51,741 nt of DNA from an uncultured Candidatus Bathyarchaeia archaeon (GCA_964395545.1 CAYNAW010000003.1:1-51741); one strand, 5' to 3'; positions 3,703-48,825 are shown, numbered from the stretch's first letter. A program made the numbers and translations. The notes: generated by a model not told the origin, from the letters alone.

Positions 3703-4884
3703 TCACAGTTCCGTTAGAGGAAAATGTGTTCGACGTAAATAGTTCCTGATGTAGTCTTGGTCGTACTCGAATTCCTTGCTTCTGAGAACCTGTCTTTCCA
3801 GTCTGTCTAAGGCTACGCGAAAGGTCGGCTGCACCCCCCATCCTTCACTGGAGCTGTAGAAAGAACCCTTCCTGGTTCGCAGTTGGAGGCGGCAATGAAT
3901 AAGTTGTCTGGCTGAGTAGTTTGTGCCATGAGTCTTCATGTAGATGAACAGCGTGCCAGCCTCTAGCGTTCCTTCGTATCTTCGTGCGAAAGAGTCAAAA
4001 TCGCCCAATATGGAACCTTGCTGGCTTTCATCTATGTCCAAGTCCTTGACGGAAAACTGCACTGCGAGTCTTCGGTCTCGCATTTCTATTTGGGCTATTG
4101 GTTCGAGAAAGTCCAGCTTTGTTATTATCCCCACAGGTCTTCGTCTTCTGACAATCACCAACGAAGATATGTCGAATTTTTGCATTTCGTGCAGTGCATT
4201 CCTCAGTGTTGCTTCAGGCAATACAGTTATGACAGGTTTTGTCATTATGCCCTTTGCTGGAACGTTTAGTAGACGAACCTTTTCGCCAGCTCTCTCGCCA
4301 GGTTTTTGGCGTTGCTTTGGTTGGAAAACATGTTCAATGATATCGTGAATGCTAACAATTCCGACGAGTCTTCCGTTGCTGACTACTGGAATGTGAGAAA
4401 TGTCCTGCTCTCTGAAGAGGTTGAGCACCACTCCCACAGATTCATTTTCCTCAACAACAACGGGTTCCTTACTCATGATTTCCTCAACTCTGCTGTTCCC
4501 CCATTTTCCCATAACAGCCTCGCGAATCACGTCTTCGTCCGTGACAAATCCGAGTATCTTCTCGCTGCTGAAAACTGGAAGTTGCCTAACGCCACTCTCT
4601 ATCATCAGCTTCGCGGCCCGGCTAAGAGAATCCTGTAACGCGACTTTGGGCGCTGAGCGCATCAGAGTCTTGACTTTGGTTACGGAAGGATCAAGCCTAG
4701 ATCTGACTATCCATCTTCTGGCGATTACACCCTTATATTTGCCTCTGTCATCCCAAACGGCTAGAACCAGTGGCATCTCTTTTTTGAGGAGGGAAAGGCA
4801 ACGGGAAAGTGTATCACTCTCGAGAACACTTGCGAAATTTCTTGAAAAGGCGCTTTCAACCTGTGCGGTCATCACGAACTCCAT
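3703..4884 (-). CDS. CBS-domain protein (4 CBS repeats) with C-terminal HPF/RaiA (S30AE)-like domain
   Basis: Four CBS repeats in res ~25-265. The last ~100 aa (VQFSVKDLDIDES...IHCRLQLRTRKGSFYSSSEGWGVQPTFRVALDRLERQVLRSKE) follow the beta-alpha-beta-beta-beta-alpha pattern and the S.EG...A.D.L...L..K signature of bacterial HPF/YfiA. Confidence 0.8.
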   Translation of the reverse strand: MEFVMTAQVESAFSRNFASVLESDTLSRCLSLLKKEMPLVLAVWDDRGKYKGVIARRWIVRSRLDPSVTKVKTLMRSAPKVALQDSLSRAAKLMIESGVRQLPVFSSEKILGFVTDEDVIREAVMGKWGNSRVEEIMSKEPVVVEENESVGVVLNLFREQDISHIPVVSNGRLVGIVSIHDIIEHVFQPKQRQKPGERAGEKVRLLNVPAKGIMTKPVITVLPEATLRNALHEMQKFDISSLVIVRRRRPVGIITKLDFLEPIAQIEMRDRRLAVQFSVKDLDIDESQQGSILGDFDSFARRYEGTLEAGTLFIYMKTHGTNYSARQLIHCRLQLRTRKGSFYSSSEGWGVQPTFRVALDRLERQVLRSKEFEYDQDYIRNYLRRTHFPLTEL

Positions 4885-4952
4885 CCTGGTATATCTATTC
4901 TCAAAGCGCTCAGGGTCCTTAAATAACTACTTTCCCGATCGCCCTATCAGAA

Positions 4953-5228
4953 CTAAATGATGTATAATGACTTTGCTGCTTCCCTTTCTAGACCTTCTGT
5001 GGCAACTTGGTCTAGAGCAGATTTTCGGCTTCCTGGTGGGGCAATAGAGATTGAATTGCCACGTTCAAGACGTTCGGGGATCTTTGTGCGATCTATCTCC
5101 TTGGCCTCGATTACCTCCACGCTTTTTTCCTCGTCATTTTTCAAAAGAGACAGATGAACAAGTCGCGTTTCCTTATTGCTTTCATCAGTCATTTTCCACA
5201 TGATATCCTTAGACATGAGTGCTCCCAC
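4953..5228 (-). CDS. hypothetical protein
   Basis: 91-aa charged ORF sitting directly below the AT-rich divergent promoter region. No family recognised. Confidence 0.4.
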   Translation of the reverse strand: MGALMSKDIMWKMTDESNKETRLVHLSLLKNDEEKSVEVIEAKEIDRTKIPERLERGNSISIAPPGSRKSALDQVATEGLEREAAKSLYII

Positions 5229-5381
5229 AGATAAATAAACATCGTCATTTACTTATAAATATTATTATTTGACAATACTTATATTAGGGAGCATATTTAT
5301 AAATCAACTCTTCGTCTTAGCGGTGAGACACAGGTCTCTCTGGTTTGACAATCCACTCAATCAACATGGAGGATCATAGAG
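5229..5381. promoter_or_regulatory. AT-rich divergent promoter/control region
   Basis: Several TATA-like TTATAAAT/TTTATAAAT elements. Direct repeat TTTGACAAT at 5268-5276 and 5344-5352. Inverted repeat GAGAC-N4-GTCTC at 5325-5338. GGAGGA SD at 5369-5374 before the TTG start at 5382. Confidence 0.55.
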
Positions 5382-8114
5382 TTGGCTCAGGAAAATGCTT
5401 GGCATGCAGAAAGAGTCGAACAAGTACTCAAAAGACTCGAGACAAGTGAAAGAGGACTAACAAGCGCCGAAGCAGAGAAGAGACTGAGAGAGCACGGGAC
5501 GAACGAACTAGAAGAAGAAAAACGAGCAACCAAATTAGCTTTGCTTGCCCACCAACTCAAGAACCCTCTGGTCGGTGTACTCGTCGCCGCTGCCTTGATT
5601 TCCTTTCTTGCTGGAAAAATGATCGATACCGTAGTTGTGATTGTCGTTATCGTCTTCAACACATCAATTGGTTTCATCCAAGAGCACAAGGCAGAAACCG
5701 CTCTTCAAGCTTTAAAATCAATGGCAGCACCCGAAGCCGAAGTGATTCGTGATTGTCCTGAAACTGGTGGCTGCATCGAAATGCGTGTCAAGGCCCAGGA
5801 AATCGTCCCCGGGGACATAGTGCTTCTGGATTCAGGAGACAAAGTTCCTGCAGATACTCGCGTTCTTGAGGCGATAAACCTCGAAATCGACGAGTCCATG
5901 TTGACTGGTGAATCGACACCGGTGAGAAAAGCGACCGAGCCTTTAGAAGAGGAGTTGCCTGTGGCCGATAGAGCGAACATGGTCTTCTCGGGCACAATAG
6001 TAACCCAAGGAAGAGGGAAAGCAGTCGTAGTCTCCACAGGAATGAAGACAGAGATAGGAAAAATCGCCAAGTTGATAAAAGAGACTAAAAGAGCTGAGAC
6101 TCCCATTCAAAAGCGAACAGTGGACTTGAGCAGGAAACTTGGGCTCTTCGCGTTGTTTGCAAGCGGTTTAGTCCTTGTACTAAGCGTCCTCCGAGGATTC
6201 GAATTTTACGAAGTGTTTCTCTTCGCTTTGGCATCTGCAGTCTCGGCCATCCCGGAGGGGCTGCCCGCAGTTATGACGATCACGTTGGCTGTTGGAGTCA
6301 ACAGGATGGCTAAGCGCAATGCCATAATCCGGAAGCTGCAGGCAGTTGACACTTTGGGCTCAGCAACGGCGATTTGCACCGACAAGACTGGGACTCTCAC
6401 TACAAACCAGATGACCGTACAGAAGATATTCGTGGACAACAGAACGGTCAATGTCACTGGTGCTGGCTATACGCCTGAAGGGCATTTTGAAGTAGAAGGT
6501 GACGCAGTAGATCCGGCGACCGATAACGCGCTCAACCTCTTGCTTCAAATTGCTGCCCTCTGCAACGACGCTAGGCTCAGGCGGCACGAAGTCAAGGAGG
6601 GGTTCCGATGGGAGATCTACGGTGACCCTACAGAAGGGGCATTGGTTGTTGTAGCGGAGAAGGCAAAACTCGTAAAGCATGAATTGGAAAAAAGGTTTCC
6701 ACGAGTCGACGAGATTCCCTTCAACCCCAAGGAGCGATACATGGCTACGTTTCACAAGGCGTCAGATGGAGGCCTAAGCGTCTATGTTAAAGGCGCTCCT
6801 GAGACTCTCTTGGAATGGTGTTCAGAAATTCTGGAAGGCGGCAAGACGAAGAAGCTGACACAACAGAAGAGAGAGGAGATTTTCCGAGCCAGCACTCACA
6901 TGGCCGGAGAGGCGCTCAGGGTGCTGGCAATGGCTTATCAGACAGTAGAAACAAAAGACATAGACAGTTTTAAGGAAAAACTGTTACATAGACGCGCCAA
7001 GCTGGTTCTTGTTGGTCTGGCGGGAATGATCGACCCGTCCAGACCAGAGGCGAAAACTTCAGTGCAACTATGCAAAAGGGCGGGAATCAAGGTCATCATG
7101 GCAACCGGAGATCACAAACTGACGGCAGAGGCTATCGCCAAAGAAGTTGGAATCCTTGAATCGAACTCGAAAGTCCTAACTGGACCGGATCTCGACAGTA
7201 TTGATGATGACGAGTTAGACGCCGTGATAGAAGAAACAGCGGTCTTTGCCCGTGTATCTCCAACACATAAGCACCGAATTGTCGTATCTCTAAGGCGGAA
7301 AGGGCATATTGTGGCTATGACAGGCGATGGTGTCAACGATGCTCCCGCCCTAAAGGCCGCGGAAATCGGCGTTGCGATGGGAATCACGGGAACAGATGTC
7401 ACAAAGGAAACTGCGGACATGGTGTTGGCCGATGACAATTTTGCCAGCATCGTAAACGCAGTCGAAGAAGGCCGTGTAGTGTTTGAAAATATACGAAAAG
7501 TTGTAAAATACTTGATTGCCACCAACACGGGAGAGATCATTACAATATTGACTGCACTCATTCTTCTGCCTGACGCTCCGCTCATTTTCACGCCAGTGCA
7601 AATATTGTGGGTTAATCTTGTAACCGATGGAATCCTCGATGTCACTCTGGCAATGGAGGCAAAAGAAGAAGATATCATGGATCAACCTCCCAGGAAACCT
7701 ACTGCAAAGATAATAAATCGAGAAATTATGATGAACACCATCTATATTGGCACATTTATGATGCTTGGAACTCTCTGGGTTTTCACAAGGGAGTGGAACA
7801 ACGGAGACATTGTCAGAGCGCAGACTCTAGGCTTCACCACTCTGGCCATGTTCCAAGTGTTCAACTCGCTCAACTGCAGATCAAGAACCAAGTCCATATT
7901 CAAGCTTGGCTTGTTTACAAACAGATATTTGTTGGGCGCCATTGCTGTGTCCGTTTCTTTGCAAGTGTTGGCAACGATCTTGCCTCCGCTTCAGATTGGC
8001 CTCGGCACTACTTCGCTTTCGATTTGGGACTGGATAACGATAATCGGTGTTTCAAGTTCAGTCTTCTTCGCTGACGAAATCAGAAAACTATTAAGAAGCA
8101 GGTTAAAGAGATGA
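5382..8114 (+). CDS. P-type cation-transporting ATPase (P2-type, Ca2+/cation pump-like)
   Basis: 910 aa with DKTGTLT phosphorylation motif, TGES, MATGDH, TGDGVNDAPALK and about 10 TM segments. TTG start with SD. Confidence 0.95.
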   Translation: MAQENAWHAERVEQVLKRLETSERGLTSAEAEKRLREHGTNELEEEKRATKLALLAHQLKNPLVGVLVAAALISFLAGKMIDTVVVIVVIVFNTSIGFIQEHKAETALQALKSMAAPEAEVIRDCPETGGCIEMRVKAQEIVPGDIVLLDSGDKVPADTRVLEAINLEIDESMLTGESTPVRKATEPLEEELPVADRANMVFSGTIVTQGRGKAVVVSTGMKTEIGKIAKLIKETKRAETPIQKRTVDLSRKLGLFALFASGLVLVLSVLRGFEFYEVFLFALASAVSAIPEGLPAVMTITLAVGVNRMAKRNAIIRKLQAVDTLGSATAICTDKTGTLTTNQMTVQKIFVDNRTVNVTGAGYTPEGHFEVEGDAVDPATDNALNLLLQIAALCNDARLRRHEVKEGFRWEIYGDPTEGALVVVAEKAKLVKHELEKRFPRVDEIPFNPKERYMATFHKASDGGLSVYVKGAPETLLEWCSEILEGGKTKKLTQQKREEIFRASTHMAGEALRVLAMAYQTVETKDIDSFKEKLLHRRAKLVLVGLAGMIDPSRPEAKTSVQLCKRAGIKVIMATGDHKLTAEAIAKEVGILESNSKVLTGPDLDSIDDDELDAVIEETAVFARVSPTHKHRIVVSLRRKGHIVAMTGDGVNDAPALKAAEIGVAMGITGTDVTKETADMVLADDNFASIVNAVEEGRVVFENIRKVVKYLIATNTGEIITILTALILLPDAPLIFTPVQILWVNLVTDGILDVTLAMEAKEEDIMDQPPRKPTAKIINREIMMNTIYIGTFMMLGTLWVFTREWNNGDIVRAQTLGFTTLAMFQVFNSLNCRSRTKSIFKLGLFTNRYLLGAIAVSVSLQVLATILPPLQIGLGTTSLSIWDWITIIGVSSSVFFADEIRKLLRSRLKR

Positions 8115-9067
8115 GTGCCAAGAAATCGAAATATGAAGTTGAACCCATTTCCATCGAGGAAAAAAACGTGCTAATGGGAAAATACGGTGAACGGCTCTTG
8201 TATGAGGAGAGAGCCGACATCTATGGCTGTTGTATTAAACTCTCCACCGACACAAAGTATGTCAAGGAACGCTGGGAAGAGAACTTCTACCCGATGTCAG
8301 CGCATGTCAGATCTCATGGAAGAATGGTAGTCACCGAAGAAGATGATGAAGAACAGCGCGTATTCTACGACCAGCTTTCGAAAACTGCCTTTCTAATCAA
8401 CGTCGACTATTATGGTTGGGTTAAATCAATAGCCCTCAGTATTGCCAGCGACATCCTTGAAGATAATCATGACATAGACTCAGTTCACGGCGCTTGCATA
8501 GACATTGATGGACAAGGAGTATGCCTAATAGCTCCCTCTGGAACAGGTAAAACAACCCACACCTACGGTCTTCTCAGGCTTCCCGGTGTTCGCGTTGTAT
8601 CCGACGATTGGTTCTTCGTTCGCCTGAGTGCAGGCCAAGCTCTCGCATTCGGTTCTGAGAAAAATTTCTACATCCAAGCCGACATTGCCGACAACTGGGG
8701 CGAATACCAGAAACTGGTAGACAAAGCTGATTTTGACTCAAAGGGCAGAGCAGTCGTCAACGTCAGATGGGTTATTGGCAAAGGAAAAATCTTGCCTATG
8801 ACCACATTGAAGAAAGCTATACTGCTGAAAAGGGAACCCGAGGACAAGGAAATCGTCAGCCGGCTGTCACCAGAAGAAGCAACCCGCTACATGGTAACTG
8901 TCGACTTCTCTAACCCCCACATGCTTGTGAAGGATGAACGAAAGATGAACTTGAGAAGACAATTCTTCAAAAAATTCTTTGCTCCTTTAGAAACCCATGC
9001 TGTTAATACCACAGCTCCAGTGCCTGAAGTTCATAAGGTCATTAAAGAAAACGTGTTAGGGTTATAA
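8111..9067 (+). CDS. HPr kinase/phosphorylase-like (PEPCK-like fold) P-loop protein
   Basis: VHGACIDIDGQGVCLIAPSGTGKTTHTYGLLRLPGVRVVSDDWFFV resembles the HprK C-terminal core (HG..vdi.G.GVLi.G.SG.GKS....L...G..LvaDD). Its ATG overlaps the ATPase stop (ATGA). Confidence 0.65.
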   Translation: MSAKKSKYEVEPISIEEKNVLMGKYGERLLYEERADIYGCCIKLSTDTKYVKERWEENFYPMSAHVRSHGRMVVTEEDDEEQRVFYDQLSKTAFLINVDYYGWVKSIALSIASDILEDNHDIDSVHGACIDIDGQGVCLIAPSGTGKTTHTYGLLRLPGVRVVSDDWFFVRLSAGQALAFGSEKNFYIQADIADNWGEYQKLVDKADFDSKGRAVVNVRWVIGKGKILPMTTLKKAILLKREPEDKEIVSRLSPEEATRYMVTVDFSNPHMLVKDERKMNLRRQFFKKFFAPLETHAVNTTAPVPEVHKVIKENVLGL

Positions 9068-9094
9068 GACAAGTCACTTTGTGTGGGGATCTAT

Positions 9095-10057
9095 GTGCGC
9101 AAAATCGGTGTGGTAACGGCTGGCGGCGATGCCCCTGGAATGAATTCTGCAATCCGCTCGATAGTGCGAACCGCAATATTCAACAAGATGGAAGTTGTGG
9201 GCGTCGAAAGAGGTTACGCGGGGCTTGTTGAAAGAAGGGTTCGCCCTTTGGATATCCGCTCCGTCAGTGGAATAATCAATCTTGGCGGAACAATACTCAG
9301 AACCACGCGATGTGAGGAAATGAAAACTGAAGGAGGGATTCAAAGAGCCAGTAGTACCTTGAGGACTCACAAAATCGATGGGCTAATCGTAATTGGAGGT
9401 GACGGCTCCTTCAGAGGAGCGAGCGAACTACACGATGCCAGCCAGATACCCGTTATAGGAGTACCTGCAACAATAGACAACGACGTCGCAGGCACAGACG
9501 TCACCATAGGCTTTGACACAGCCGTCAACACTGCCCTATTCACAATTGACCGAATTCGTGACACTGCTACTTCTCATGAGCGAGTGTTCGTGGTTGAGGT
9601 GATGGGACGAAAAAGAGGTTTTCTAGCTCTTGCTGTAGGATTCGCTGAAGGTGCCGAGTTCATACTTGTTCCAGAAATCAAATTCAACCTAGAATCCATC
9701 TGCAACAAACTCATGCAAGGACGAAAGAAAGGAAAAACCTCAGAAATAATAGTCATGGCAGAGGGCGCTGGGAATTCCTCTCTAATCGCCGAAGAAATAG
9801 GAAGGAAGACTGGATACGATGTTCGCTTGACAATACTTGGCCATGCTTTGAGAGGAGGACCGCCTACAGCTCAAAGCAGAATCCTCGCCGGCCAATTTGG
9901 AGCACACGCTGTAGACCTCCTTCTGAACGGCGCGAAGAAAAGTATGGTTGGAATAAGAGGGCAACGAATCGTATCAGTGGATTTGGATATTTCCTGGAAG
10001 AGCAAAAAGGATTTGAACAAGCGTTCCTACCGTCTAGCTGAAATCTTATCATCATAA
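9095..10057 (+). CDS. pfkA: 6-phosphofructokinase, PfkA family
   Basis: RKIGVVTAGGDAPGMNSAIR, GGDGSFRGA, PATIDNDV and MGRKRG motifs. GTG 9095 is preferred over GTG 9083 because homologs begin at ..IGVLTSGGDAPGMN and GGGGATC lies upstream. Confidence 0.9.
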   Translation: MRKIGVVTAGGDAPGMNSAIRSIVRTAIFNKMEVVGVERGYAGLVERRVRPLDIRSVSGIINLGGTILRTTRCEEMKTEGGIQRASSTLRTHKIDGLIVIGGDGSFRGASELHDASQIPVIGVPATIDNDVAGTDVTIGFDTAVNTALFTIDRIRDTATSHERVFVVEVMGRKRGFLALAVGFAEGAEFILVPEIKFNLESICNKLMQGRKKGKTSEIIVMAEGAGNSSLIAEEIGRKTGYDVRLTILGHALRGGPPTAQSRILAGQFGAHAVDLLLNGAKKSMVGIRGQRIVSVDLDISWKSKKDLNKRSYRLAEILSS

Positions 10058-10207
10058 TGGGGGATTGAATTCGTAGACCCTACGAGCGAGAATGAAAACT
10101 GGAGAGTAGAGAGTTGCTGACTTTGAATCCCCTCAATTTGGGAGAGTCTAAGATCACAGAATTATCAACCACTGCAAACGTTGAAGTTGAAGAAAGGAGG
10201 AGAAAAC

Positions 10208-11320
10208 ATGTATGAACTTCTCATAGAATTGTTGGTGGGCGTTCTAAGAGGCATAGTCTATGGCGGAGCCGCAGCTTTTCCCATAATCTTCCTATCATTA
10301 ATATTTAGATATTTCACGAATGAGAAGCTGCCCTCATTCATAGGTATAATCTTAGGCCTGGGAATTCTAGGTATCTCAGGTGGTCTTATCGCGGTGCTAG
10401 AGCAGACTACAGTTGAAGGTGTCACTCAGGTCGTCATTGCTAGCATTGTGATTGTTTGGAGCGTTGGCGTTGGAGACAAGATGGCTGAAAGGATCCCAAA
10501 GGGAGGAGAACCCCTGTTCCACGCGCTGAAAGGTAGAAAATCAAAATACATTACGATAAAACTGCCTAATAGGCGCTTGATATACGATATATCAGGAAAG
10601 CCACGAGTTATTGACGAACTCAAAGATGAGTTGTCCGAGAGAGAATTCGTCTTACCCCTTGACTTTTCAATAGAAGAGATGGTCAGTAGGATTAGAAGAA
10701 GACTGATCTCAGACTGGGGCGTTGGCGATGTCGAACTCGAATTGGATAGAATGGGCAAAGTGGTCTATCTTGCAGTATCAGCTAAGGAATTTGGTCTCAG
10801 TGAAACAACGCCAAAAGGAAGGATAGCGGTACCCGTAAAATGCGATATGATTCCTTCTGGCTTATCCTCTAATGACATCGTAAGAATTTACTTGAAAGAC
10901 AAGGTAGTCATTGACCAGGTTGAGGTCAAAGGTGTAAGCAAAGAAGACAAGATAGTCACCGTTGTCGTGGATCCAGACTCTTTTGAGAAAATCATGGAAA
11001 AAGAGGCACAATTGATCGTAGCTCTGCCATTCGCGAAACGGAAGTCTGTTCCGATTACCGTGAAGAAACGTTCAGGTACACTTGAAGAGTTCAACATTGA
11101 AAAAATATTCTCTTCAATTGTAGATGCGGGGGCTCATGAGGAATTGGCAAAAGAGATCGCTGAAAAGATTGAAGCGAGATTCTCCAAACTAACTACCCCC
11201 ATCGAAACGGAAGAATTGAAGGAAATTGTCGTTGAGGAATTGGAGAAAGCAGACCTGCAGATTTCTAAGAAATTCAAGAATTACAAGAAATCAGCGAGGC
11301 CACAATCGAGGTCACAGTGA
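10208..11320 (+). CDS. membrane-anchored protein with C-terminal ATP-cone domain
   Basis: About 3 N-terminal TM helices and a central soluble region. The C-terminus ITVKKRSGTLEEFNIEKIFSSIVDAGAHEELAKEIAEKIE...TEELKEIVVEELE...KFKNYKK matches the ATP-cone consensus. ATG 10208 is preceded by AGGAGG; the track start at 10181 is TTG. Confidence 0.8.
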   Translation: MYELLIELLVGVLRGIVYGGAAAFPIIFLSLIFRYFTNEKLPSFIGIILGLGILGISGGLIAVLEQTTVEGVTQVVIASIVIVWSVGVGDKMAERIPKGGEPLFHALKGRKSKYITIKLPNRRLIYDISGKPRVIDELKDELSEREFVLPLDFSIEEMVSRIRRRLISDWGVGDVELELDRMGKVVYLAVSAKEFGLSETTPKGRIAVPVKCDMIPSGLSSNDIVRIYLKDKVVIDQVEVKGVSKEDKIVTVVVDPDSFEKIMEKEAQLIVALPFAKRKSVPITVKKRSGTLEEFNIEKIFSSIVDAGAHEELAKEIAEKIEARFSKLTTPIETEELKEIVVEELEKADLQISKKFKNYKKSARPQSRSQ

Positions 11321-11470: not shown

Positions 11471-13147
11471 ATGGAAGATCTACAAGAAACGATCAAAGAG
11501 GAGAAAATCTCCTATTTTTCAATGGAAATAGGACTATCTAATGAAATCCATACATACTCTGGAGGCTTGGGAGTTCTCGCTGGCGATACGATAAGGGCAA
11601 GCGCAGATCTGAAACTACCACTTGTGGCTGTCACATTGGTGAGCAAAAAGGGATACTTTAGGCAAGAATTAACACATGATGGACGGCAGATTGAATATCC
11701 TCAAGAGTGGAACCCATTTCAATTTATGAAACTGCTGCCCGTGGAGACGAGTGTACAGATTCAAGATAGAAACGTGAGGATCAAAACCTGGCTTTACAGA
11801 GTGCAAAGCATAACAGGAGGAATGGTTCCAGTCCTTTTTCTCGATACGGATGTGGAAGGAAACATTCCTGAAGATAGAGAGATCACTTTCTTTCTTTACG
11901 GAGGGGATGAGAAATACAGGCTAAGACAGGAGATTGTTTTGGGAATCGGCGGCGTAAGAATGCTTGATGCTTTGGGCTTCAAAATCAGAAGATATCACAT
12001 GAACGAAGGTCACTCTAGCCTTCTTGCCTTAGAGCTATTGAACAGGTTTGGGATGAACCTTGAAAGGGTTCGCGAGTCGTGTATTTTTACAACTCACACT
12101 CCAGTGGAAGCAGGACATGACAGGTTTTCATATGATACTGTTAGAGAGATTCTGGGACAAAACACTGATTTGGAAGTCTTGAAAAGATTCAGTGGTTATG
12201 ACGAACTAAACATGACGCGCCTAGCCCTAAATCTGAGCAACTACATCAATGGAGTAGCCAAAAAGCATCGTGAGGTTTCCAGGCAGATGTTTCCGGGTTA
12301 TGAGATTCACGCAATAACAAACGGCATTCACTCTTACACATGGACGTGCAGGGGTTTTAAGAAACTATATGACAAATATCTGCCCGGCTGGGCAAACGAT
12401 CCAGATCTGCTTGTAAGAGTGGACAGTATTCCTGACGAAGACATTTGGGAAGCCCATGAAGAAGCAAAAAAGGTTCTGATTGATCACGTTAACAACGCAA
12501 CCAACGTGGGTATGGATTACAATACGTTAACCTTAGGATTCGCAAGAAGGGCGACAGAATACAAAAGGGCTAACCTTCTGTTCTCAGATATAGAAAAACT
12601 GAGAAAAGCAAATAGACAGGGTAAGATGCAGCTAATTTTTGCTGGAAAAGCTCACCCCCGAGACGATTCGGGGAAAAGGCTAATCAAAGAAACTTTTGAC
12701 TACATCGAAAGGCTGAAGAATGAAATCAAGATCGTCTATTTAGAGAATTACGACATGGAACTCGCGGCAACATTAATCTCTGGAGTTGATGTTTGGCTTA
12801 ACACGCCTTTACAACCCATGGAGGCTTCTGGCACAAGCGGAATGAAGGCAGCTCACAACGGCGTGATAAACTTCAGCGTATTAGACGGTTGGTGGATTGA
12901 AGGCTGGATTGAGGGAGTCACCGGCTGGGCTATCGGATTTCACCCAGACGACCATAGGTCACTGGAGGAAAGCCAACTTAGAGAGCTTGATGACCTGTAC
13001 AGCAAGTTGGAAAACGTGGTCATTCCTATGTTCTACCAGAAAAGAGCTGATTGGATAAAAATGATGAGAAATTCGATAGGAAAGATCGCTTACTACTTTA
13101 ACAGTCACAGGATGATGCGCAGATACGTAACCGAAGCTTACTTGTGA
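11471..13147 (+). CDS. glgP: alpha-glucan (glycogen/maltodextrin) phosphorylase, GT35
   Basis: YFSMEIGL...YSGGLGVLAGD N-terminus and EASGTSGMKAAHNG pyridoxal-phosphate lysine motif. Strong SD GGAGAGGAGG. Confidence 0.9.
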   Translation: MEDLQETIKEEKISYFSMEIGLSNEIHTYSGGLGVLAGDTIRASADLKLPLVAVTLVSKKGYFRQELTHDGRQIEYPQEWNPFQFMKLLPVETSVQIQDRNVRIKTWLYRVQSITGGMVPVLFLDTDVEGNIPEDREITFFLYGGDEKYRLRQEIVLGIGGVRMLDALGFKIRRYHMNEGHSSLLALELLNRFGMNLERVRESCIFTTHTPVEAGHDRFSYDTVREILGQNTDLEVLKRFSGYDELNMTRLALNLSNYINGVAKKHREVSRQMFPGYEIHAITNGIHSYTWTCRGFKKLYDKYLPGWANDPDLLVRVDSIPDEDIWEAHEEAKKVLIDHVNNATNVGMDYNTLTLGFARRATEYKRANLLFSDIEKLRKANRQGKMQLIFAGKAHPRDDSGKRLIKETFDYIERLKNEIKIVYLENYDMELAATLISGVDVWLNTPLQPMEASGTSGMKAAHNGVINFSVLDGWWIEGWIEGVTGWAIGFHPDDHRSLEESQLRELDDLYSKLENVVIPMFYQKRADWIKMMRNSIGKIAYYFNSHRMMRRYVTEAYL

Positions 13148-26003: not shown

Positions 26004-27190
26004 AAGAATGCGGTAAGGATGATGGAACTGAATATTATGCTCATTATGACCGCTCCGAAGCCTCCTAGAAAGGCTTTGTTCCAAGAGAGCTCCTGCATCT
26101 TTTTCAGGGCGATCGTGCACAGGACGGTAGTCCAGGCATAGTATAGTAGGCTCAGGATCGAGATGGGCAAGCCCCAGTTGTTTTGGTAGATTGCGATGTA
26201 TTCTTCATAGGCAAAGTTGTACGGGACGAAGATGGGGGGCAAGACAAGGAAAACTAGGGCGAGGGCTCCCTGATAGACGAGTGTCACTGAATAGATATAG
26301 CCCAAGGTGCTCACTAGGTTCTTCCAGACACCACTCCACTTCGAGACGCTCTTCAATATTAAGAAAGCTATTGCCGAGAGCATTAGCCATCTAATCAAGA
26401 AATCGGTGACGCTTCTCATGATCCAGAATATGCTCAGCAATGTGATGTCGTCCCACATAACGGTGTAGAATCTGCCAAAGAAGAGGTCGTCTATCTTCAG
26501 CGTGAGCGTCGACAGGTCTGCCCATGAAACCACGAGTCCTATGCCGGTAATGTTGTCCCAGCTCGGCGCGTTCTCGGCTGTCCAATCGTCGCCTGCAAGG
26601 TTTACGCTGACGTTTGCCCACGTGTCACCTGTGTCCGCCAAAAGGTCGCTCACATCGAGTTCAAACCGTTTGTCTTCATCGTTGAGCGAGAAGAGCTGCA
26701 GCGTAGCATCGGTAGGCGTCACGTTTCCTGCATTAATCCATTTTGTCCTAAGCGATAGGCGACCATACTCTTCTTTGGAGCAGTTGATGCTTCCTATGCC
26801 TGTAAGCCGCAACCAGATGGACGAGCCATTTCCCAGAGTGGCTGAGACCGTGTCGTTGCCAACGATGGTCTCGTAGTTTTCGAACGTTATGTTGCCGTTT
26901 GAGCTCCACTGAAACAGGGTCGAATTCGTCGGGTGTTCTGTCCACAAGTCTTTCTCCGGCTTCGGGTCTTCAAAGAAGAACTTGGTTCCGCTGAGGTATT
27001 GTGCGCCTATGGTTAGGGGTAGCGTTATCAGCAGGATTAGGATTGGACCCTTGATGTTCGGTTTCTTCACTATTTCCTCGAAGGTCTTCACGGGAGAGTA
27101 GAGAACCCCGAACACCCATTTCACGAATTGGACACGGCTCTCTTTCTCTTCTTTCCTTTCTTCGGCGGGCAGAGTTTCTTCTGCTGTCAA
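26000..27190 (-). CDS. Yip1-domain-like membrane protein with large extracytoplasmic insert
   Basis: VFGVLYSPVKTFEEIVKKPNIKGP Yip1-type N-terminus and 5 TM segments. Beta-rich loop of about 170 aa with many N-x-S/T sequons. Its TTG start overlaps the HMGCS stop (TTGA). Confidence 0.65.
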   Translation of the reverse strand: MTAEETLPAEERKEEKESRVQFVKWVFGVLYSPVKTFEEIVKKPNIKGPILILLITLPLTIGAQYLSGTKFFFEDPKPEKDLWTEHPTNSTLFQWSSNGNITFENYETIVGNDTVSATLGNGSSIWLRLTGIGSINCSKEEYGRLSLRTKWINAGNVTPTDATLQLFSLNDEDKRFELDVSDLLADTGDTWANVSVNLAGDDWTAENAPSWDNITGIGLVVSWADLSTLTLKIDDLFFGRFYTVMWDDITLLSIFWIMRSVTDFLIRWLMLSAIAFLILKSVSKWSGVWKNLVSTLGYIYSVTLVYQGALALVFLVLPPIFVPYNFAYEEYIAIYQNNWGLPISILSLLYYAWTTVLCTIALKKMQELSWNKAFLGGFGAVIMSIIFSSIILTAFF

Positions 27191-28710
27191 CTTTCTTGCA
27201 TTCCCCGTTTGAATCTTCTGTAGGCGGCATAGTCTATGTAATTTATAGACGTGTTTCCTGCTTGGTACCCGATGGTGAATTTCTGTCGGTTCCTCTTTTC
27301 AGTTATCTGACCCGTGGTTATGAAGGAGTAGGCGTCGCTCCCTGCTCCTGATCCGTAACTTCCCACCACAATCCTCTCGCCGGGTTTCGCCACGTCAAGG
27401 ATGGCCGCCAAGCCGATGGGCGAGCATCCTGAATAGGTGTTCCCAAACTTGGCCACTTGAAGCCCGGGCTGGAACTGCTCCTCTGTGAAGCCCAGAGCCT
27501 TAGAAGCCCGGGTCGGAAATGCAGCGTTGGGTTGATGCGCCACGAAATAGTTTACGTCTCGAGGCTCCAACTTCAAGCGTTCCATAAGCTTCTTCACGGC
27601 CTTCGTCACATGCTTGAAGTAGGCTGGTTCTCCGGTGAATCTGCCTCCGTGGCTCGGGTAGGGTTGAGTGTCTCTTCTCCAAAAATCCGGCGTGTCCGAA
27701 GTGACTGAGCACCAGCCCTCAAATTGAGCTATGACGTCACATTTGCCAAAGATGAAGGCGCAAGCGCCATAGCCCACAAAGAAGTCTAACTCGCCACCGG
27801 GTTCTCCTCTAGGCGCGGATTGAGAGTTGTCTGTGCCAATCACCATGGCATAGGCTTCCTCCGAGTCAGGGTAGTACACCAGAGAGGCGGCATCTTTGAA
27901 CATGCTGGTCGCTGCTTTGCAGGCAAATTCGGTGTCCACCGCGTCTACGCACTGTAGTCCTTCTGCTTGGCATTCTTCGCCGAGCTTAAGGACCTGCGCC
28001 ACCTTGGAGGCGATGGGCTTGACCGCGTACGGATTAGACTCTGAGCCCACGTACACCTTGCCAACCAGCCTATGGTCTATGGCCGAGTGGATGAGGGCAA
28101 TCTTTCCGGCTTCCACGGCTGCAGTGATCGAGTCTTCATCCAAGAACGGGACAGAACGCTCAATCGCTCCGTCTTTTACTCTGAATTTAGAGGAGTAGAC
28201 GCCGTAGCCCACTATTCCGGGCCTCTCGTATTCTTTGGATGGCCTAACAATCCTGTAGTCTTGGAAGGGGTAGTACCCGCTGGATAGGGAGAAAGCCAAG
28301 GAGATGGTGGGCACTATTTCGCTTGGCTCAACGGCATGTCTTCTCCTGAAGCGAGGAACAACCTTCTTGCCCTCCAACTCGTCAAAGTCGATTTCTTCTC
28401 CATCCTTAACGATGTGGTCGGTCAGTCTTGCAGGAAACTTCACTGCACCGTCATGGAATGACACTATCCCGTACACGTAGGGGGCAAGCCTCGTAAACTT
28501 GTTCGTCGACTCGTTTACTAAAGTGCATACTTCCAAGGTTCCTTCGTCGTAGAAGAAGTCGATGTTCTCCATCTTTCTGAAGCTCTCTCGCCCACAGGCG
28601 CCGCAGTAGTTTCTGGGCTTGAAGTACTCTCTGCCGCAGAGGGTGCAGCGGCTACCTCGCAGTCTGTCGCCTATGTAGGCTACCCTTCGCTCGATGGGCT
28701 CGCTACTCAC
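27187..28710 (-). CDS. DUF35 (Zn-ribbon/OB-fold) fused to hydroxymethylglutaryl-CoA synthase
   Basis: The N-terminal ~125 aa carry CTLCG..x..CGACG rubredoxin-like and OB motifs typical of DUF35. The rest is HMGCS (GSESNPYAVKP, EFACKAATS catalytic Cys, GSYGSGAGSD). GTG 28710 overlaps the thiolase stop (GTGAGTAG) and follows GGGGAGGG. Confidence 0.85.
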   Translation of the reverse strand: MSSEPIERRVAYIGDRLRGSRCTLCGREYFKPRNYCGACGRESFRKMENIDFFYDEGTLEVCTLVNESTNKFTRLAPYVYGIVSFHDGAVKFPARLTDHIVKDGEEIDFDELEGKKVVPRFRRRHAVEPSEIVPTISLAFSLSSGYYPFQDYRIVRPSKEYERPGIVGYGVYSSKFRVKDGAIERSVPFLDEDSITAAVEAGKIALIHSAIDHRLVGKVYVGSESNPYAVKPIASKVAQVLKLGEECQAEGLQCVDAVDTEFACKAATSMFKDAASLVYYPDSEEAYAMVIGTDNSQSAPRGEPGGELDFFVGYGACAFIFGKCDVIAQFEGWCSVTSDTPDFWRRDTQPYPSHGGRFTGEPAYFKHVTKAVKKLMERLKLEPRDVNYFVAHQPNAAFPTRASKALGFTEEQFQPGLQVAKFGNTYSGCSPIGLAAILDVAKPGERIVVGSYGSGAGSDAYSFITTGQITEKRNRQKFTIGYQAGNTSINYIDYAAYRRFKRGMQES

Positions 28711-29908
28711 GCTGTTCCCTCCCCAAGATGTGAACGTAGGCTTTGGTCCCGAAGCCCTCCAGCTCGTGAACACAGCCGCAGCTGAGCTCCCCGTCTGCCT
28801 TGACTTGTCTCTCACCTGCCTCGTGTCTCAACTGCTGAAACACCTCAAAGACCTCTGCACCTCCGGTAGCCCCCAACGGGTTGCCGTCTGCCTTCAATCC
28901 TCCATTCGTGTTAATGAAGAGCTTCCTGCCGTCAAGTTCGTAATAGTCTCTCCGCTGACCGTTCTCGTGAATGTCCTTCCAAGCCTTGCCTCTATGGTAG
29001 AAGCCCAAGTCTTCCAGAGACACCATTCCCATCATCGTGGACTGATCGTAGACTTGTAGGATTGCGATGTCTTCCAACCTGACTCGGGCGGCTTTGAGAG
29101 CTTCGTCCATCGCGAGGCGAGTAGCTAAGAAGCCTGTCAAATCGCTCCGTGAAGGGAACGTGATGTAGTCTGTAGCCGTAGAGGAGCCTAACACGTAGAC
29201 GGCCTTGTCAGTGTAGGATTCGGCAAGCTCCGCGCTCGTCAGAATCAAGGCAGAGGCGCCATCGGAAATGGGTGCAAAATCGAACAACCCCAACGGCTTT
29301 CTTGCCTCAGTCCGTGCCTTGACGACAGTCTCGACTGAGACTTCCCTGCGGAACTGAGCATACTCGTTCTTCACGGCGTTGCGGTGGTTCCTGACAGAGA
29401 GTTGAGCTAGAGCTTTGTTGAAGGAGTCGAGCTCGTTGCCCGTTATCTTGTGCTGTCTAACGTATGCTCTCAGCATCAGCTCGTGGTTGGCTTCAGGGGT
29501 GCACCCCGCATAGTAGCTCCATGGGTCTTCCAAAAGCATGAGGTCGTCCCGTATCTTGTCCCAGCGGTCAGTCATCTTTTCCATCCCTCCCACGAGCACA
29601 AGGTCATACTTGCCAGCTTGAACAGCGTTACAAGCGTTAGAAAGCGTGGAGCTGAATGAACGCGTGATTTCCATGGGAATGTTCGTTTCCAGAAGCTCGG
29701 ACAAGAAGCCCTCCTCGAGCCCAATCTTGTTGGTTATGGGCAAGAAGTAGTCGGCGAAGTAGCATGCGTTCAGGTCTCCCCGCTCGATCTTGGCTGAATT
29801 CAGCGCCGCCAGTCCGGCCTCTTCCACGAGGTCCTCGGGCTCCCTCTCATAATGCTCTCCAAAATGGGTTCTGCCCACGCTGATGATGGCTGGGCACTTC
29901 GCTTTCAT
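28703..29908 (-). CDS. acetyl-CoA acetyltransferase (archaeal thiolase, SCP-x-like)
   Basis: Thiolase-fold motifs (LSNACNAV, GGMEKM, NTNGGLKADGNPLGATG) in the usual position next to HMGCS. Confidence 0.9.
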   Translation of the reverse strand: MKAKCPAIISVGRTHFGEHYEREPEDLVEEAGLAALNSAKIERGDLNACYFADYFLPITNKIGLEEGFLSELLETNIPMEITRSFSSTLSNACNAVQAGKYDLVLVGGMEKMTDRWDKIRDDLMLLEDPWSYYAGCTPEANHELMLRAYVRQHKITGNELDSFNKALAQLSVRNHRNAVKNEYAQFRREVSVETVVKARTEARKPLGLFDFAPISDGASALILTSAELAESYTDKAVYVLGSSTATDYITFPSRSDLTGFLATRLAMDEALKAARVRLEDIAILQVYDQSTMMGMVSLEDLGFYHRGKAWKDIHENGQRRDYYELDGRKLFINTNGGLKADGNPLGATGGAEVFEVFQQLRHEAGERQVKADGELSCGCVHELEGFGTKAYVHILGREQRE

Positions 29909-40595: not shown

Positions 40596-41573
40596 TTACT
40601 CAGAAACTGTTCTTCTTGAGAATGGCTTAATGCCCTTCTCGTATATTTCGGTTGCCCTTCCATACACCTCATCTTTACTGCCGAACCGTGTTGAGCCCAC
40701 CGCCTCCACGACAAATGACGCGGCTGCCGAACCCACGCAGCAACACCATAATGGCTCCCTGTCCCGAGCGTGTTCGGCTAGGAAGCCGCCGATGAAGGCG
40801 TCCCCCGCCCCGGTCGAGTCCACAAGTATCCGTGGCTTGCACGCGGGAATGTTGTAGCAACCGTCTTCGAAGCATGCTACCGCACCTCTCTCTCCCATAG
40901 TGATCAGCACCGTCTTCACGCCCCACCGTCGAATCTCTTGCACGGACGCTGCAAGGGTAGACTGCCCGGTCAACACCCTCGTCTCCTGAAGTGAAGACTT
41001 GACAACATCGCAGTGCTGAAGGAACTCCAAGTCAGCAGGTTTTTCGAGTCGCGTCCGTCCAGCAGAGTCGAATTGTCGTACAAACCCTTGTGGATCGATG
41101 GATAGAACGCGTGTTCTTTTTCTCAGCTCGGCAATGACGTCCATGTCCACTTCGTTTGCTACGGGAGCCACGTGGACTATTTTCACCTGCAGACCGTGTG
41201 GTAGGTCGCTTAACCCTATCTGTGGTGCCTTGTTCCTTAACTGTATCTTCCGGCGGCCCGAGCGATACGTCAGAACGAAGCTTGTTGTCAGGGCGGTTTC
41301 TTCAACCCCCACGTGTGACAGGTTCACGTTGTTTTCGCAAAGCCGTCCGTGATAGTTGTGAAAGTCCCTGCCGACCCTCGAGATCGCTGTCACTTTGGCG
41401 CCCAGTTTTGCCGCCGTCAGGGAGACAAAAGCGGCTGGACCGCCTAGAGTCGGTCTCGACCGGGCTATTGTTGGCGATTTGATCAGGTCTATTGCGAAGT
41501 GACCGATTGTGGCGATGTCGAACCGCGTTGTTTTCGACATGGTGGGGCGCGAACCTTGTGTTGGCGTTTCCAT
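40596..41573 (-). CDS. PfkB-family carbohydrate/nucleoside kinase
   Basis: Ribokinase-like fold with VDSTGAGDAFIGGF anion-hole motif. TATATA box 25-30 nt upstream suggests a leaderless mRNA. Confidence 0.85.
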   Translation of the reverse strand: METPTQGSRPTMSKTTRFDIATIGHFAIDLIKSPTIARSRPTLGGPAAFVSLTAAKLGAKVTAISRVGRDFHNYHGRLCENNVNLSHVGVEETALTTSFVLTYRSGRRKIQLRNKAPQIGLSDLPHGLQVKIVHVAPVANEVDMDVIAELRKRTRVLSIDPQGFVRQFDSAGRTRLEKPADLEFLQHCDVVKSSLQETRVLTGQSTLAASVQEIRRWGVKTVLITMGERGAVACFEDGCYNIPACKPRILVDSTGAGDAFIGGFLAEHARDREPLWCCCVGSAAASFVVEAVGSTRFGSKDEVYGRATEIYEKGIKPFSRRTVSE

Positions 41574-46688: not shown

Positions 46689-46843
46689 CTCTGTGCCTCA
46701 ACAGTGATTAGTTACGGGTCGACGCTCTTTTAATGCTTGCTCCTTTCATCCCAGCTTGCGCCACTGTGGTGTAGTCTCCCCATACGCACACAACCCTATT
46801 ATCCATGAACTAGTAGTGGTCAAACCAAGATGTAGTGATGTCT

Positions 46844-48163: not shown

Positions 48164-48825
48164 TCCAGAAGCTGTGTGAGGTTTCTAATCCTCTCAACAT
48201 CCTCTTCTCCGACAGTACCCTCACGGTCGACAAGCCACGTTCTCAGACCACATTTCTTGGCGCCTCTGTAGTCATATTCCACGTGATCACCGACGAAGAT
48301 GACTTCCTGCGGAGAGAGGCTTAACTCCTTCAGCGCTTGCAGGAACATCTCTCTGCTCGGCTTCATTCTACCAACCAAGTCTGACGTGATCTCCACGTCG
48401 AAAAGGCCAGTCAGTCCAACTCTCGACAAAATCTCTCTAACGTCACTTACTAGTCCGTTCGTTACGAGACCGATTTTCAGACCCTTCTGCCGGAGCCGTC
48501 GAAGCGTCTCTTGAGTATCTGGATATAGTTCCACGCTGCAATATTGCCACCACACCTCCGATATGCGCTTTGCAAGGCGAACTTTCTCGTTGCGAACCCC
48601 CAGATGCTCCAACACCTGCATGTTCCATTTGTGCCAAAATGCGTCGCCGAGGACTGGCATCTCCTCAATATCCACGTCTTTCTCGGCAAGTCCCCTTGCC
48701 CGCTCAACCTCCTCGACAGATCGTTCGATGCCATGTGCCTTCAGTATGTTCGCCATCACTTCGGAGACCGGTTGGCTTTTTATCAGCGTTCCGCCCAGGT
48801 CAAAGAGAACCGCCTTCATCTTCAT
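48154..48825 (-). CDS. HAD-superfamily hydrolase
   Basis: AVLFDLGGTL (DxD-like motif I), TNG motif II and VGDHVEYD motif IV. TTATTTAA TATA box at 48866-48873. Confidence 0.85.
   Translation of the reverse strand: MKMKAVLFDLGGTLIKSQPVSEVMANILKAHGIERSVEEVERARGLAEKDVDIEEMPVLGDAFWHKWNMQVLEHLGVRNEKVRLAKRISEVWWQYCSVELYPDTQETLRRLRQKGLKIGLVTNGLVSDVREILSRVGLTGLFDVEITSDLVGRMKPSREMFLQALKELSLSPQEVIFVGDHVEYDYRGAKKCGLRTWLVDREGTVGEEDVERIRNLTQLLDYI

Follow-up and report, generated by a model that had tools for sequence, protein, structure and literature searches.

What kind of protein is encoded by the gene that lies between a cation pump and a phosphofructokinase in a Bathyarchaeia genome? The window analysed here, a stretch of 51.7 kb in its full length, carries archaeal markers (Nop5, fibrillarin, and an archaeal ThrRS editing domain), and its closest homologues are from Bathyarchaeia. 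All features discussed below are located on its + strand. The gene in question, called X in the following, is an open reading frame of 318 residues at 8111..9067. The ORF is real, as the earlier note described, and with 2050 homologues, forming more than 2000 clusters at 90% identity, it is not a chance ORF. Its start codon (ATG, 8111-8113) overlaps the stop codon of the preceding ATPase gene (TGA, 8112-8114) within an ATGA at 8111..8114, and this overlap probably reflects translational coupling of the two genes. The stop codon TAA of X ends at 9067, and the longest ORF of the following phosphofructokinase (PFK) opens at a GTG at 9083. The in-frame GTG at 9095, which is preceded by GGGGAT, yields the canonical PFK N-terminus MRKIGVVTAGGDAPGMN and is the likely true start. 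Therefore, the spacing of 27 nt between X and pfkA given earlier is reasonable.

The upstream gene (5382..8114) encodes a type IIA-like P-type cation ATPase of 910 residues with the Pfam domains E1-E2_ATPase and Cation_ATPase_N/C, which scores 747 bits against TIGR01522 and thus remains under the cutoff of 798. The downstream gene (9083..10057, likely start 9095) encodes a PfkA-family ATP-dependent 6-phosphofructokinase (PF00365, E=6.5e-108), which is well covered by curated models (402 bits against NF002872 with a cutoff of 253; TIGR02482 is also above cutoff). It is followed by a membrane protein with a C-terminal ATP-cone (10181..11320; PF03477, E=1.5e-10) and by an alpha-glucan (glycogen/maltodextrin) phosphorylase-like protein of family GT35 (11471..13147; PF00343, E=1.2e-29). 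The ATP-cone membrane protein is missing from this position in related loci and is outside the conserved cluster. In agreement with the earlier note, which had noticed neither HPr nor PTS genes in the window, Pfam scans of its 44 ORFs revealed no HPr, EI, or EII domains.

X had been read as an HprK homologue because its P-loop region (residues 125-170, VHGACIDIDGQGVCLIAPSGTGKTTHTYGLLRLPGVRVVSDDWFFV) resembles the HprK core at the same relative position, and residues 132-181 of the Staphylococcus xylosus HprK (1ko7) indeed pair with residues 122-172 of X. The Pfam domain Hpr_kinase_C (PF07475) matches residues 124-277 with 31.4 bits (gathering score 33.3; E=1.6e-7), and all 70 tested members of the X family match this domain, the best of them with 3.9e-12. 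In a PDB profile search the family profile finds the Lactobacillus casei HprK (1jb1) with E=1e-8, and the match extends to a further segment in the central loop of HprK (RGLGIIDV versus GRAxVDV). The core residues H126-G127, G144-T-G-K147-T148, and D165-D166 align to the HprK structures and are invariant in the 70 sequences, position 148 being Thr in 69 of them and Ser in one. Thus, at the superfamily level the P-loop core and HprK are homologous. However, judged by its sequence scores X is not an HprK orthologue, because all curated HprK and HprK-related models remain far under cutoff. TIGR00679 covers only residues 123-178 with 30.3 bits (cutoff 240), and the models of the HprK-related kinases A and B and of ScmC reach 21.3, 13.5, and 12.6 bits (cutoffs 200, 200, and 125), with weak similarity around the P-loop (E between 1e-4 and 0.06). 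Many homologues of X also have faint precomputed matches to PF27840.

The comparison of structures leads to the phosphoenolpyruvate carboxykinases (PEPCKs). The AF2 model, which was built from an MSA since AlphaFold from the single sequence gave a pLDDT of just 33.6, has a pLDDT of 93.7 and a pTM of 0.91. Its best 50 PDB matches by Foldseek are all ATP- or GTP-PEPCKs (query-normalised TM 0.60-0.77, E ~1e-14), with no HprK structure among these 50, and the best match in a viral fold library is a giant-virus PEPCK (TM 0.76). An alignment by hhalign to a PEPCK_ATP profile, built from sequences trimmed of an N-terminal X-like module, places residues 11-318 of X on residues 95-466 of E. coli Pck with a probability of 97.7% (E=2.5e-12). 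By contrast, X scores only 11.3 bits against PF01293 (PEPCK_ATP; gathering score 26.5) and 24.7 bits against NF006821 (cutoff 369), and weak PEPCK_ATP matches are present in 17 of the 70 family members. For the C-terminal domain, the scores favour HprK_C over PEPCK in Pfam (31 versus 11 bits) and in the PDB profile search (1e-8 versus 0.6), although the profiles on the two sides are not equivalent. The N-terminal domain alone is collinear with the PEPCK profile but not significantly so (P=0.013; reversed control 0.096), and its assignment to PEPCK therefore rests on the predicted structure. The earlier note would have given up the HprK relationship had the best profile or structure hits fallen in an unrelated P-loop family. 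The fold matches do fall outside HprK, but PEPCK and HprK_C constitute one superfamily, so that the family found is a related one.

The residues around the putative active site can be followed across both families. The motif DYYGWVKS (residues 99-106, 8405..8428) is the counterpart of 'YGGEMKK' in PEPCK, with hhalign pairing Y100, G102, and K105 of X with Y207, G209, and K212 of Pck, while the Mn ligand K213 is replaced by Ser106. Y101, G102, K105, and S106 are invariant in the 70 sequences. The invariant His126 (8486..8488) corresponds to the Mn ligand H232 of PEPCK and to the His of the HprK 'HG'. The P-loop APSGTGKTT (residues 141-149, 8531..8557) provides K147 and T148, equivalent to K254 and T255 of E. 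coli Pck, and is followed by the invariant Asp165-Asp166 (8603..8608), equivalent to D268/D269 of PEPCK and to the 'DD' of HprK. In total, K147, T148, T149, D165, D166, H126, E183, and Y187 are invariant or nearly so in the 70 sequences, which extend down to 36% identity, and about 25 further positions are invariant in the same set. The nucleotide/Mg ligands of PEPCK (K254, T255, D268) and two of its Mn ligands (H232, D269) are accordingly conserved. In the profile alignment, Y207 and R333 are also kept (Y100 and K/R226), whereas R65 belongs to the first 94 residues of Pck, to which nothing in X corresponds; R67 or K43 might take its place in space. R67 of X had been considered by eye as the equivalent of R65 ('VRSHGR' versus 'GRSPKDK'), but the profile alignment puts residue 67 near Pck 164.

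The X family is found in Bathyarchaeia, Hadarchaeia, Micrarchaeota, Methanobacteriaceae, and others, and it has neither a curated model nor a characterised member. A literature search for characterised archaeal HprK-like or mini-PEPCK proteins returned nothing relevant. Public annotations comprise 'hypothetical protein', 'aldolase', and 'HPr kinase/phosphorylase', and are thus uninformative or inconsistent. A survey of 79 species-level loci revealed PFK, alpha-glucan phosphorylase (GlgP), ApgM, glycogen synthase (GlgA), or PfkB within four ORFs of X in 43 loci, and directly adjoining X in 38. At least four gene orders were found: X-PFK-GlgP, X-GlgP, PFK-X-ApgM, and GlgA/X-PfkB-ApgM. PFK directly follows X in 15 loci and directly precedes it in two distant ones, and GlgP is present in 26 loci, in 23 of them at most two genes downstream of X. 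The ATPase is located upstream on the same strand in 20 of the 79 loci, and in 19 of these 20 the stop/start offset is -3 or at most 2 nt from -3, these offsets being approximate because the starts of X were projected from tblastn. Outside one clade most loci lack the ATPase. The linkage of ATPase, X, and pfkA is therefore conserved in many relatives, and the earlier proposal does not fall for want of it. The ATPase-X-PFK-GlgP cluster is present in the published Bathyarchaeota MAG ILS200, which reportedly has no pyruvate kinase (PMC9241837). In lineages other than Bathyarchaeia and their relatives, X has neighbours that are unrelated to glycolysis and show no common theme. In Methanobacteriaceae the order is DeoC-DHQS-II-X-LigT-CCA, which looks like lineage synteny, and on Micrarchaeota-type (DPANN) contigs agmatine/polyamine genes follow X.

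Because the predicted fold of the whole protein is PEPCK-like and the glycogen/glycolysis context is recurrent, a hitherto undescribed enzyme of central metabolism is more likely than a bacterial-style HPr kinase, and the most likely role moves from a regulator that phosphorylates proteins to an enzyme derived from PEPCK. In its specific form, to which we would give about an even chance, X would be an active, nucleotide-dependent phosphotransferase for small molecules at the PEP/C3-C4 acid node, with a pared-down PEPCK fold. Model and alignment demonstrate the predicted fold and the conservation of the residues. X would consist of half of the PEPCK N-terminal domain and a compact P-loop domain, which by sequence most resembles the C-terminal domain of HprK. 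It would represent the stand-alone, active form of an archaeal family, presumably co-transcribed with glycogen and glycolysis genes in Bathyarchaeia and relatives and, in one clade, translationally coupled to a P-type cation pump. ATP or ADP with Mg would bind at the P-loop (K147, T148, D165) and a second metal at H126/D166. The inter-domain cleft could accommodate a small C3/C4 anion like PEP, pyruvate, or oxaloacetate as the substrate, and would be lined by the family-specific invariant basic residues K43, R67, H69, K105, and K/R226 at putative positions. Phosphoryl transfer would then proceed as in PEPCK. As X lacks the ligands with which PEPCK binds the carboxylate/CO2, it probably catalyses something other than the canonical carboxykinase reaction. 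A bolder version seems unlikely to us: X might be a PEPCK-derived, non-carboxylating PEP:ADP phosphotransferase, an analogous 'pyruvate kinase' of new structure that would contribute the final ATP-forming reaction to a glycogen-to-pyruvate operon of archaea without canonical pyruvate kinase. In one clade it might feed ATP directly to the co-translated ion pump, and the HprK C-terminal domain would be a further reduction of an ancient mini-PEPCK scaffold.

The strongest competitor, which we regard as possible but doubtful, is an HprK-like Ser kinase/phosphorylase for proteins or peptides. It would sense glycolytic metabolites and phosphorylate the product of a neighbouring gene (PFK, alpha-glucan phosphorylase, glycogen synthase, or the P-type ATPase), as an archaeal analogue of HprK or phosphorylase-kinase control. 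This corresponds to the phospho-regulatory module of the earlier note. To our knowledge, proteins or peptides are the substrates of every HprK-type relative characterised so far. The best sequence-profile matches including the central loop, the weak similarity to the HprK-related kinases, and the conserved linkage to PFK and to enzymes whose eukaryotic counterparts are controlled by phosphorylation are all consistent with such a kinase, and the conserved coupling to the ATPase would be in keeping with a dedicated regulator. However, the window lacks HPr and PTS genes, the HprK-type models are far from their cutoffs, and the fold is PEPCK-like over the full length including the N-terminal domain. 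In addition, the family has about 35 invariant positions, many of which are polar residues in the N-terminal domain, a pattern seen more typically in active sites for small molecules, and the DPANN and Methanobacteriaceae members have none of the proposed targets nearby. The regulatory module is thus possible but not favoured.

The metabolic enzyme might also be a genuine minimal ATP-dependent PEPCK (oxaloacetate + ATP <-> PEP + ADP + CO2), in which family-specific residues replace R65 and K213. The fold, the collinear alignment, the retained counterparts of Y207, K212, H232, K254, T255, D268, D269, and R333, and the weak Pfam matches of some members would agree with this, as would the paralogous modules that accompany PEPCK and aspartate-type aminotransferase. 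We consider it quite unlikely, because R65 and K213, two of the three ligands of oxaloacetate/CO2, are not retained, X has neither the omega-loop lid nor the C-terminal 75 residues, the Pfam and NCBIfam PEPCK scores are far under cutoff, and Bathyarchaeia already have a large PEPCK (P0437, P0439, P0441, P0446).

These modules are degenerate paralogues of X. They form the N-terminus of PEPCKs of about 890 residues in more than 95 clusters from Asgard archaea and Bathyarchaeia, and the C-terminus of aspartate-type aminotransferase fusions of about 783 residues. In the one locus analysed, the gene of an aminotransferase fusion is followed by a PEPCK gene 29 nt on. Residues 7-325 of P0149 are 29% identical to X (E=6e-36), and the comparison of X with the fused N-terminal module in the PEPCK alignment by hhalign gives E=9.5e-37. 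H126 is replaced by Arg in 95 of 96 modules, the P-loop Lys is present in just 36, and R213 is deleted in all 96. The fold can therefore serve a non-catalytic role, and the fusions link X to the PEP/oxaloacetate node. X itself might chiefly assist another protein, such as the P-type ATPase or a complex of glycolytic enzymes, as a subunit that senses nucleotides or has no catalytic activity. Despite these modules and the conserved stop/start overlap this is very unlikely, because every catalytic residue is invariant in the stand-alone family, which argues for retained catalysis, and because most loci outside one clade do not contain the ATPase.

Bathyarchaeia are among the most abundant sediment lineages, and their glycolysis has been reconstructed from homology only. 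If X is an enzyme, it would represent an unrecognised step or isoenzyme in the central carbon metabolism of Bathyarchaeia, and also of DPANN and some methanogens. Should it instead phosphorylate proteins, archaeal glycolysis or glycogen metabolism would have its first HprK-type regulator. In structure, the X family takes an intermediate position between PEPCK and HprK. Along with the double PEPCKs and the aminotransferase fusions it offers a concrete handle on the origin of the HprK catalytic domain from a carboxykinase scaffold, and it bears on the pairing of enzymes and pseudoenzymes at the PEP/oxaloacetate node.

Compared with known systems, X shares with HprK/P (PF07475, TIGR00679; 1jb1, 1ko7) the best sequence-profile match of its C-terminal domain, the overall length, the P-loop position, the HG...GxxGxGK(S/T)...DD core, and the central loop, but it has a PEPCK-like instead of an HprK N-terminal domain, an archaeal host, and no HPr or PTS context in the window. 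The HprK-related kinases A and B, ScmC, and the lasso-peptide kinases (TIGR04352, TIGR04355, TIGR04249/PF27840) resemble X weakly near the P-loop. They occupy radical-SAM, peptide-maturation, or lasso-peptide contexts, whereas X is surrounded by central-metabolism genes (P-type ATPase, PFK, GlgP, ApgM, GlgA) and has no genes of those kinds nearby. The ATP-PEPCKs (PF01293; E. coli PckA, Thermus thermophilus 2pc9/1xkv) match the predicted fold over all 318 residues (TM 0.73-0.77). They have in common with X the kinase-1a P-loop SGTGKTT, the DD motif, and the H232 equivalent, with 'YYG..K' for 'YGGEMKK', 'E.N.Y' for 'EGGCYAK', and a C-terminal 'NT' motif in X. They comprise about 530 residues, however, and X is devoid of Pck 1-94, the omega-loop lid, and residues 467-540, in addition to the invariant Ser at K213 and the low model scores. 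Finally, the fused modules are full-length homologues of X but have lost the catalytic residues that are intact in the stand-alone protein, and they are tied to PEPCK covalently or by operon, whereas X is tied to glycogen and glycolysis genes.

The reading frame at 8111-9067 (+) encodes a protein of 318 residues, here called X, and the gene arrangement described in the earlier note is borne out. The ATG of X overlaps the TGA of a 910-residue P-type ATPase (ATGA at 8111-8114), and a PfkA-family ATP-dependent 6-phosphofructokinase (PFK; NF002872, 402 bits) follows downstream. The distance of 27 nt between X and PFK holds for an in-frame GTG at 9095, counted from the TAA of X. The longest PFK reading frame already begins at GTG 9083, but the real start is probably GTG 9095, which gives the canonical PFK N-terminus (MRKIGVV...) and has GGGGAT just before it. 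The ATPase contains E1-E2_ATPase, Cation_ATPase_N/C and HAD domains (Pfam) and is closest to PMR1/SERCA-type models, with scores below their cutoffs. Between PFK and an alpha-glucan phosphorylase-like gene (11471-13147, +) lies a gene (10181-11320, +) for a 379-residue protein with a C-terminal ATP-cone and an N-terminus that, judged by eye, is apparently hydrophobic and membrane-like. This gene is missing from this position in related loci, where PFK is joined directly to the phosphorylase, and seems to be an insertion specific to its lineage, possibly encoding a nucleotide sensor. Pfam searches of the 44 ORFs of the window revealed housekeeping genes of archaeal type (for Nop5, fibrillarin, Trm1, and a ThrRS carrying the archaeal editing domain) and, as had been noticed by eye, no HPr or PTS domain. 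Further carbohydrate genes encode a PfkB-family kinase (40596-41573, -), a GT4/GT5 glycogen-synthase-like glycosyltransferase (46835-48163, +) and a HAD hydrolase (48154-48825, -). These are 30-40 kb away from X; the PfkB and GT4/GT5 families are found directly beside X in other genomes. Elsewhere, the coordinates called for two ORFs at 27187-29908 (-) share about 110 nt; one ORF is thiolase-like, and the other encodes 541 residues bearing ACP_syn_III_C and a zinc ribbon of ChsH2 type. Probably the pair represents an archaeal arrangement of the thiolase / HMG-CoA synthase / DUF35 type in which a start was set wrongly.

Residues 125-170 of X (VHGACIDIDGQGVCLIAPSGTGKTTHTYGLLRLPGVRVVSDDWFFV) had been compared to the HprK kinase core. 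This likeness stands in so far as the P-loop domain is HprK_C-like by sequence, but it does not extend to the curated HprK models, which all score below cutoff. Hpr_kinase_C matches residues 124-277 with E=1.6e-7 and 31.4 bits, where the gathering score is 33.3, and PEPCK_ATP is a weak second Pfam match (11 bits). Every match to the NCBIfam models is far sub-threshold, namely HprK TIGR00679 (30 bits, cutoff 240), the PEP carboxykinase (PEPCK) model NF006821 (residues 76-191, 25 bits, cutoff 369), HprK-related kinases A (21 bits, cutoff 200) and B (13 bits, cutoff 200), and ScmC (13 bits, cutoff 125), and no curated family of Pfam or NCBIfam takes in X. Against the PDB sequences, X alone matched HprK 1ko7 at E=0.002, and a profile of 70 family sequences matched L. 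casei HprK (1e-8), with the central loop of HprK covered by a second stretch, and PEPCKs at 0.6-1.7. All 70 family members match Hpr_kinase_C, and 17 of them also PEPCK_ATP.

The predicted fold, by comparison, is that of PEPCK. The AF2 model built with the alignment has a pLDDT of 93.7 and a pTM of 0.91, and the top 50 Foldseek matches in the PDB are PEP carboxykinases only, with no HprK structure among them. ATP-type PEPCKs head the ranking (T. thermophilus 2pc9/1xkv, E. coli 1aq2/6at3, and others; query-normalised TM 0.65-0.77, E about 1e-14), GTP-type entries rank after these, and a giant-virus PEPCK was found in the viral library (TM 0.76). Because a query-normalised TM of about 0.76 is out of reach for a 200-residue P-loop domain alone, the N-terminal domain of the model must match as well, and we infer that it is also PEPCK-like. 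Alignment with hhalign to a PEPCK_ATP profile, composed of E. coli ATP-dependent PEPCK (Pck), 12 unfused PEPCKs, and the PEPCK halves of 16 fusion proteins, placed residues 11-318 of the X family on Pck 95-466 (probability 97.7%, E=2.5e-12). The C-domain alone reached 2.7e-11 against this profile; the N-domain alone aligned collinearly and was not significant (P=0.013).

X belongs to a large family. A first search yielded 2050 clusters at 90% identity (E<=1e-3), of which the best 120 are 73-99% identical to X, come from Bathyarchaeia, and are mostly unnamed or called 'hypothetical protein', 'aldolase', or 'HPr kinase/phosphorylase'. Searched exhaustively, the 50%-identity representatives gave 334 matches, and a word-index search starting from a 40%-identical member retrieved same-length proteins of Micrarchaeota, 'ainarchaeum', and Methanobacteriaceae. 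The GTDB species genomes contain at least 569 X loci, the best 80 of which are from Bathyarchaeia, Hadarchaeia, Brockarchaeota, Nezhaarchaeota, Wolframiiraptor, Nitrososphaeria, and Hodarchaeota. Across 70 aligned sequences, with identities down to 36%, 37 positions are invariant, including K43, R67, H69, Y101, G102, K105, S106, E117, D118, H126, G127, G146, K147, T149, D165, D166, W167, E183, N185, Y187, N268, P269, H270, R282, and N299. Several proteins of 450-570 residues (P0180, P0181, P0203, P0208, P0213, and others) are homologous to residues ~35-175 of X and have intact catalytic residues, a GKS-type P-loop, and, following the DD motif, a long insertion. They make up a further uncharacterised branch of the same superfamily.

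X-like modules also occur in fusions. P0149 (899 residues) combines such a module (residues 7-325) with a full PEPCK_ATP domain (residues 371-850), and this 'double PEPCK' architecture of ~890 residues is found in more than 95 clusters (P0149, P0390-P0484; locus L093 6001-8655) from Hod-, Hel-, Loki-, and Freyarchaeota, Bathyarchaeia, Altiarchaeota, and some bacteria. Bacterial proteins of ~783 residues (P0174, P0218, P0499-P0508; locus L094 6001-8352) consist of a class I/II (aspartate-type) aminotransferase and a degenerate X-like module. The gene of a 609-residue PEPCK_ATP protein (8381-10210) starts 29 nt after the fusion gene in L094, and the pair suggests a unit leading from aspartate via oxaloacetate to PEP. 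H126, the P-loop lysine, D165, and R213 are all kept in 69 stand-alone proteins. Among 96 PEPCK-fused modules the counterpart of H126 is arginine in 95, the lysine is kept in 36, D165 is mostly replaced by asparagine or histidine, and R213 is deleted throughout; the aminotransferase-fused modules are eroded in similar fashion. Given this difference in catalytic residues, the fused modules would be pseudo-enzyme partners of PEPCK and X the active form. The ~890-residue proteins look like an undescribed enzyme-pseudoenzyme fusion.

The linkage of ATPase, X, and PFK recurs outside the window. Three relatives with 85%, 81%, and 76% identity share the order X-PFK-phosphorylase; the ATPase is directly upstream in two of them and glycogen synthase nearby in a different pair. 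A relative with 75% identity has X isolated amid purine-biosynthesis genes. For the 79 species-level loci that allowed indexing of X, de novo clustering of the four ORFs on either side gave counts that are lower bounds, as contig ends cut many loci: P-type ATPases in 29 loci (20 directly upstream on the same strand), GlgP-like phosphorylases in 26 (23 at +1/+2, same strand), PfkA-type PFKs in 18 (15 directly downstream, two, from a clade with 57% identity, directly upstream), ApgM-like phosphoglycerate mutases in 15 (10 directly downstream), and, at various positions, GT4/GT5 glycogen synthases in 13 and PfkB kinases in five. The ApgM, glycogen synthase, and PfkB clusters were labelled by reading representative sequences, with Pfam support from genes of loci L004 and L006. 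At least one glycolysis/glycogen gene lies within four ORFs of X in 43 of the 79 loci and is adjacent in 38, in diverse gene orders. The offset between ATPase stop and X start equals the -3 of the window or deviates by at most 2 nt in 19 of 20 loci, the X starts being approximate projections from tblastn. In L004, where X is intact, the gene calls split the ATPase upstream of it into ORFs of 109 and 797 residues (4227-7000), which may reflect a frameshift, a sequencing error, or a pseudogene.

Other contexts differ. Methanobacteriaceae (L007, L091, L092) have a conserved run of DeoC-type aldolase, archaeal DHQ synthase II, X, LigT-like 2',5' RNA ligase, and CCA-adding enzyme, reflecting either functional linkage or just lineage synteny. 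Agmatine/polyamine genes follow X on Micrarchaeota-type contigs, either an arginase-family agmatinase or N-carbamoylputrescine amidase (CN_hydrolase) with agmatine deiminase (PAD_porph) (L008 8236-11496; L009 6964-7830; the contig of P0353), a neighbourhood unlike the glycolytic one. Therefore, the glycolytic link of X is strong in Bathyarchaeia and allies but not universal. Locus L071 (DATKLC010000055.1), labelled Candidatus Krumholzibacteriaceae bacterium, carries PFK-X together with ApgM and glycogen-synthase clusters, a set typical of Bathyarchaeia, owing to either mis-binning or horizontal transfer.

What X does can be narrowed down to some extent. With about even confidence we propose that X would be a nucleotide-dependent phosphotransferase on a reduced PEPCK scaffold, whose substrate might be a small, negatively charged metabolite from the PEP / pyruvate / oxaloacetate node or close to it, and which would be expressed together with glycogen breakdown and glycolysis; its chemistry we infer. 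It is also plausible that X is an HprK-like protein kinase with PFK, phosphorylase, or the pump as its target, because X scores better to HprK_C by sequence and its coupling to the ATPase is conserved, but we consider this less likely given the PEPCK fold of the full-length protein, the absence of HPr from the window, and the many invariant polar residues of the N-domain. The Bathyarchaeota MAG ILS200 has been reported without pyruvate kinase (PMC9241837), and it carries the X cluster (locus L018). For this reason a PEPCK-derived pyruvate-kinase analogue is conceivable, though improbable.

Comparison with Pck bears on the remaining readings. Y100, G102, K105, H126, K147, T148, D165/D166, E183, and Y187 of X are the counterparts of Pck Y207, G209, K212, H232, K254, T255, D268/D269, E282, and Y286, respectively. 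Pck K213 corresponds to an invariant serine (S106), K288 to Q189 (arginine in most family members), and R333 to K/R226. Ligands of nucleotide/Mg, of Mn, and of oxaloacetate/CO2 in PEPCK are among these residues. A canonical PEP carboxykinase is improbable because R65 and K213 are lost, and a purely structural role is very unlikely since the catalytic residues are invariant. The 'LVNTG' motif of Pck is 'VNT' in X, and X lacks Pck 1-94 (which includes R65), the omega-loop lid, and residues 467-540. Judged by these counterparts, the nucleotide/Mg site of PEPCK would be preserved in X together with two of three Mn ligands, but the canonical oxaloacetate/CO2 site would be lost. No paper on the X family was found in the literature searched. 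Structurally, this family is a new form that stands between PEPCK and HprK, the two known branches of their superfamily.
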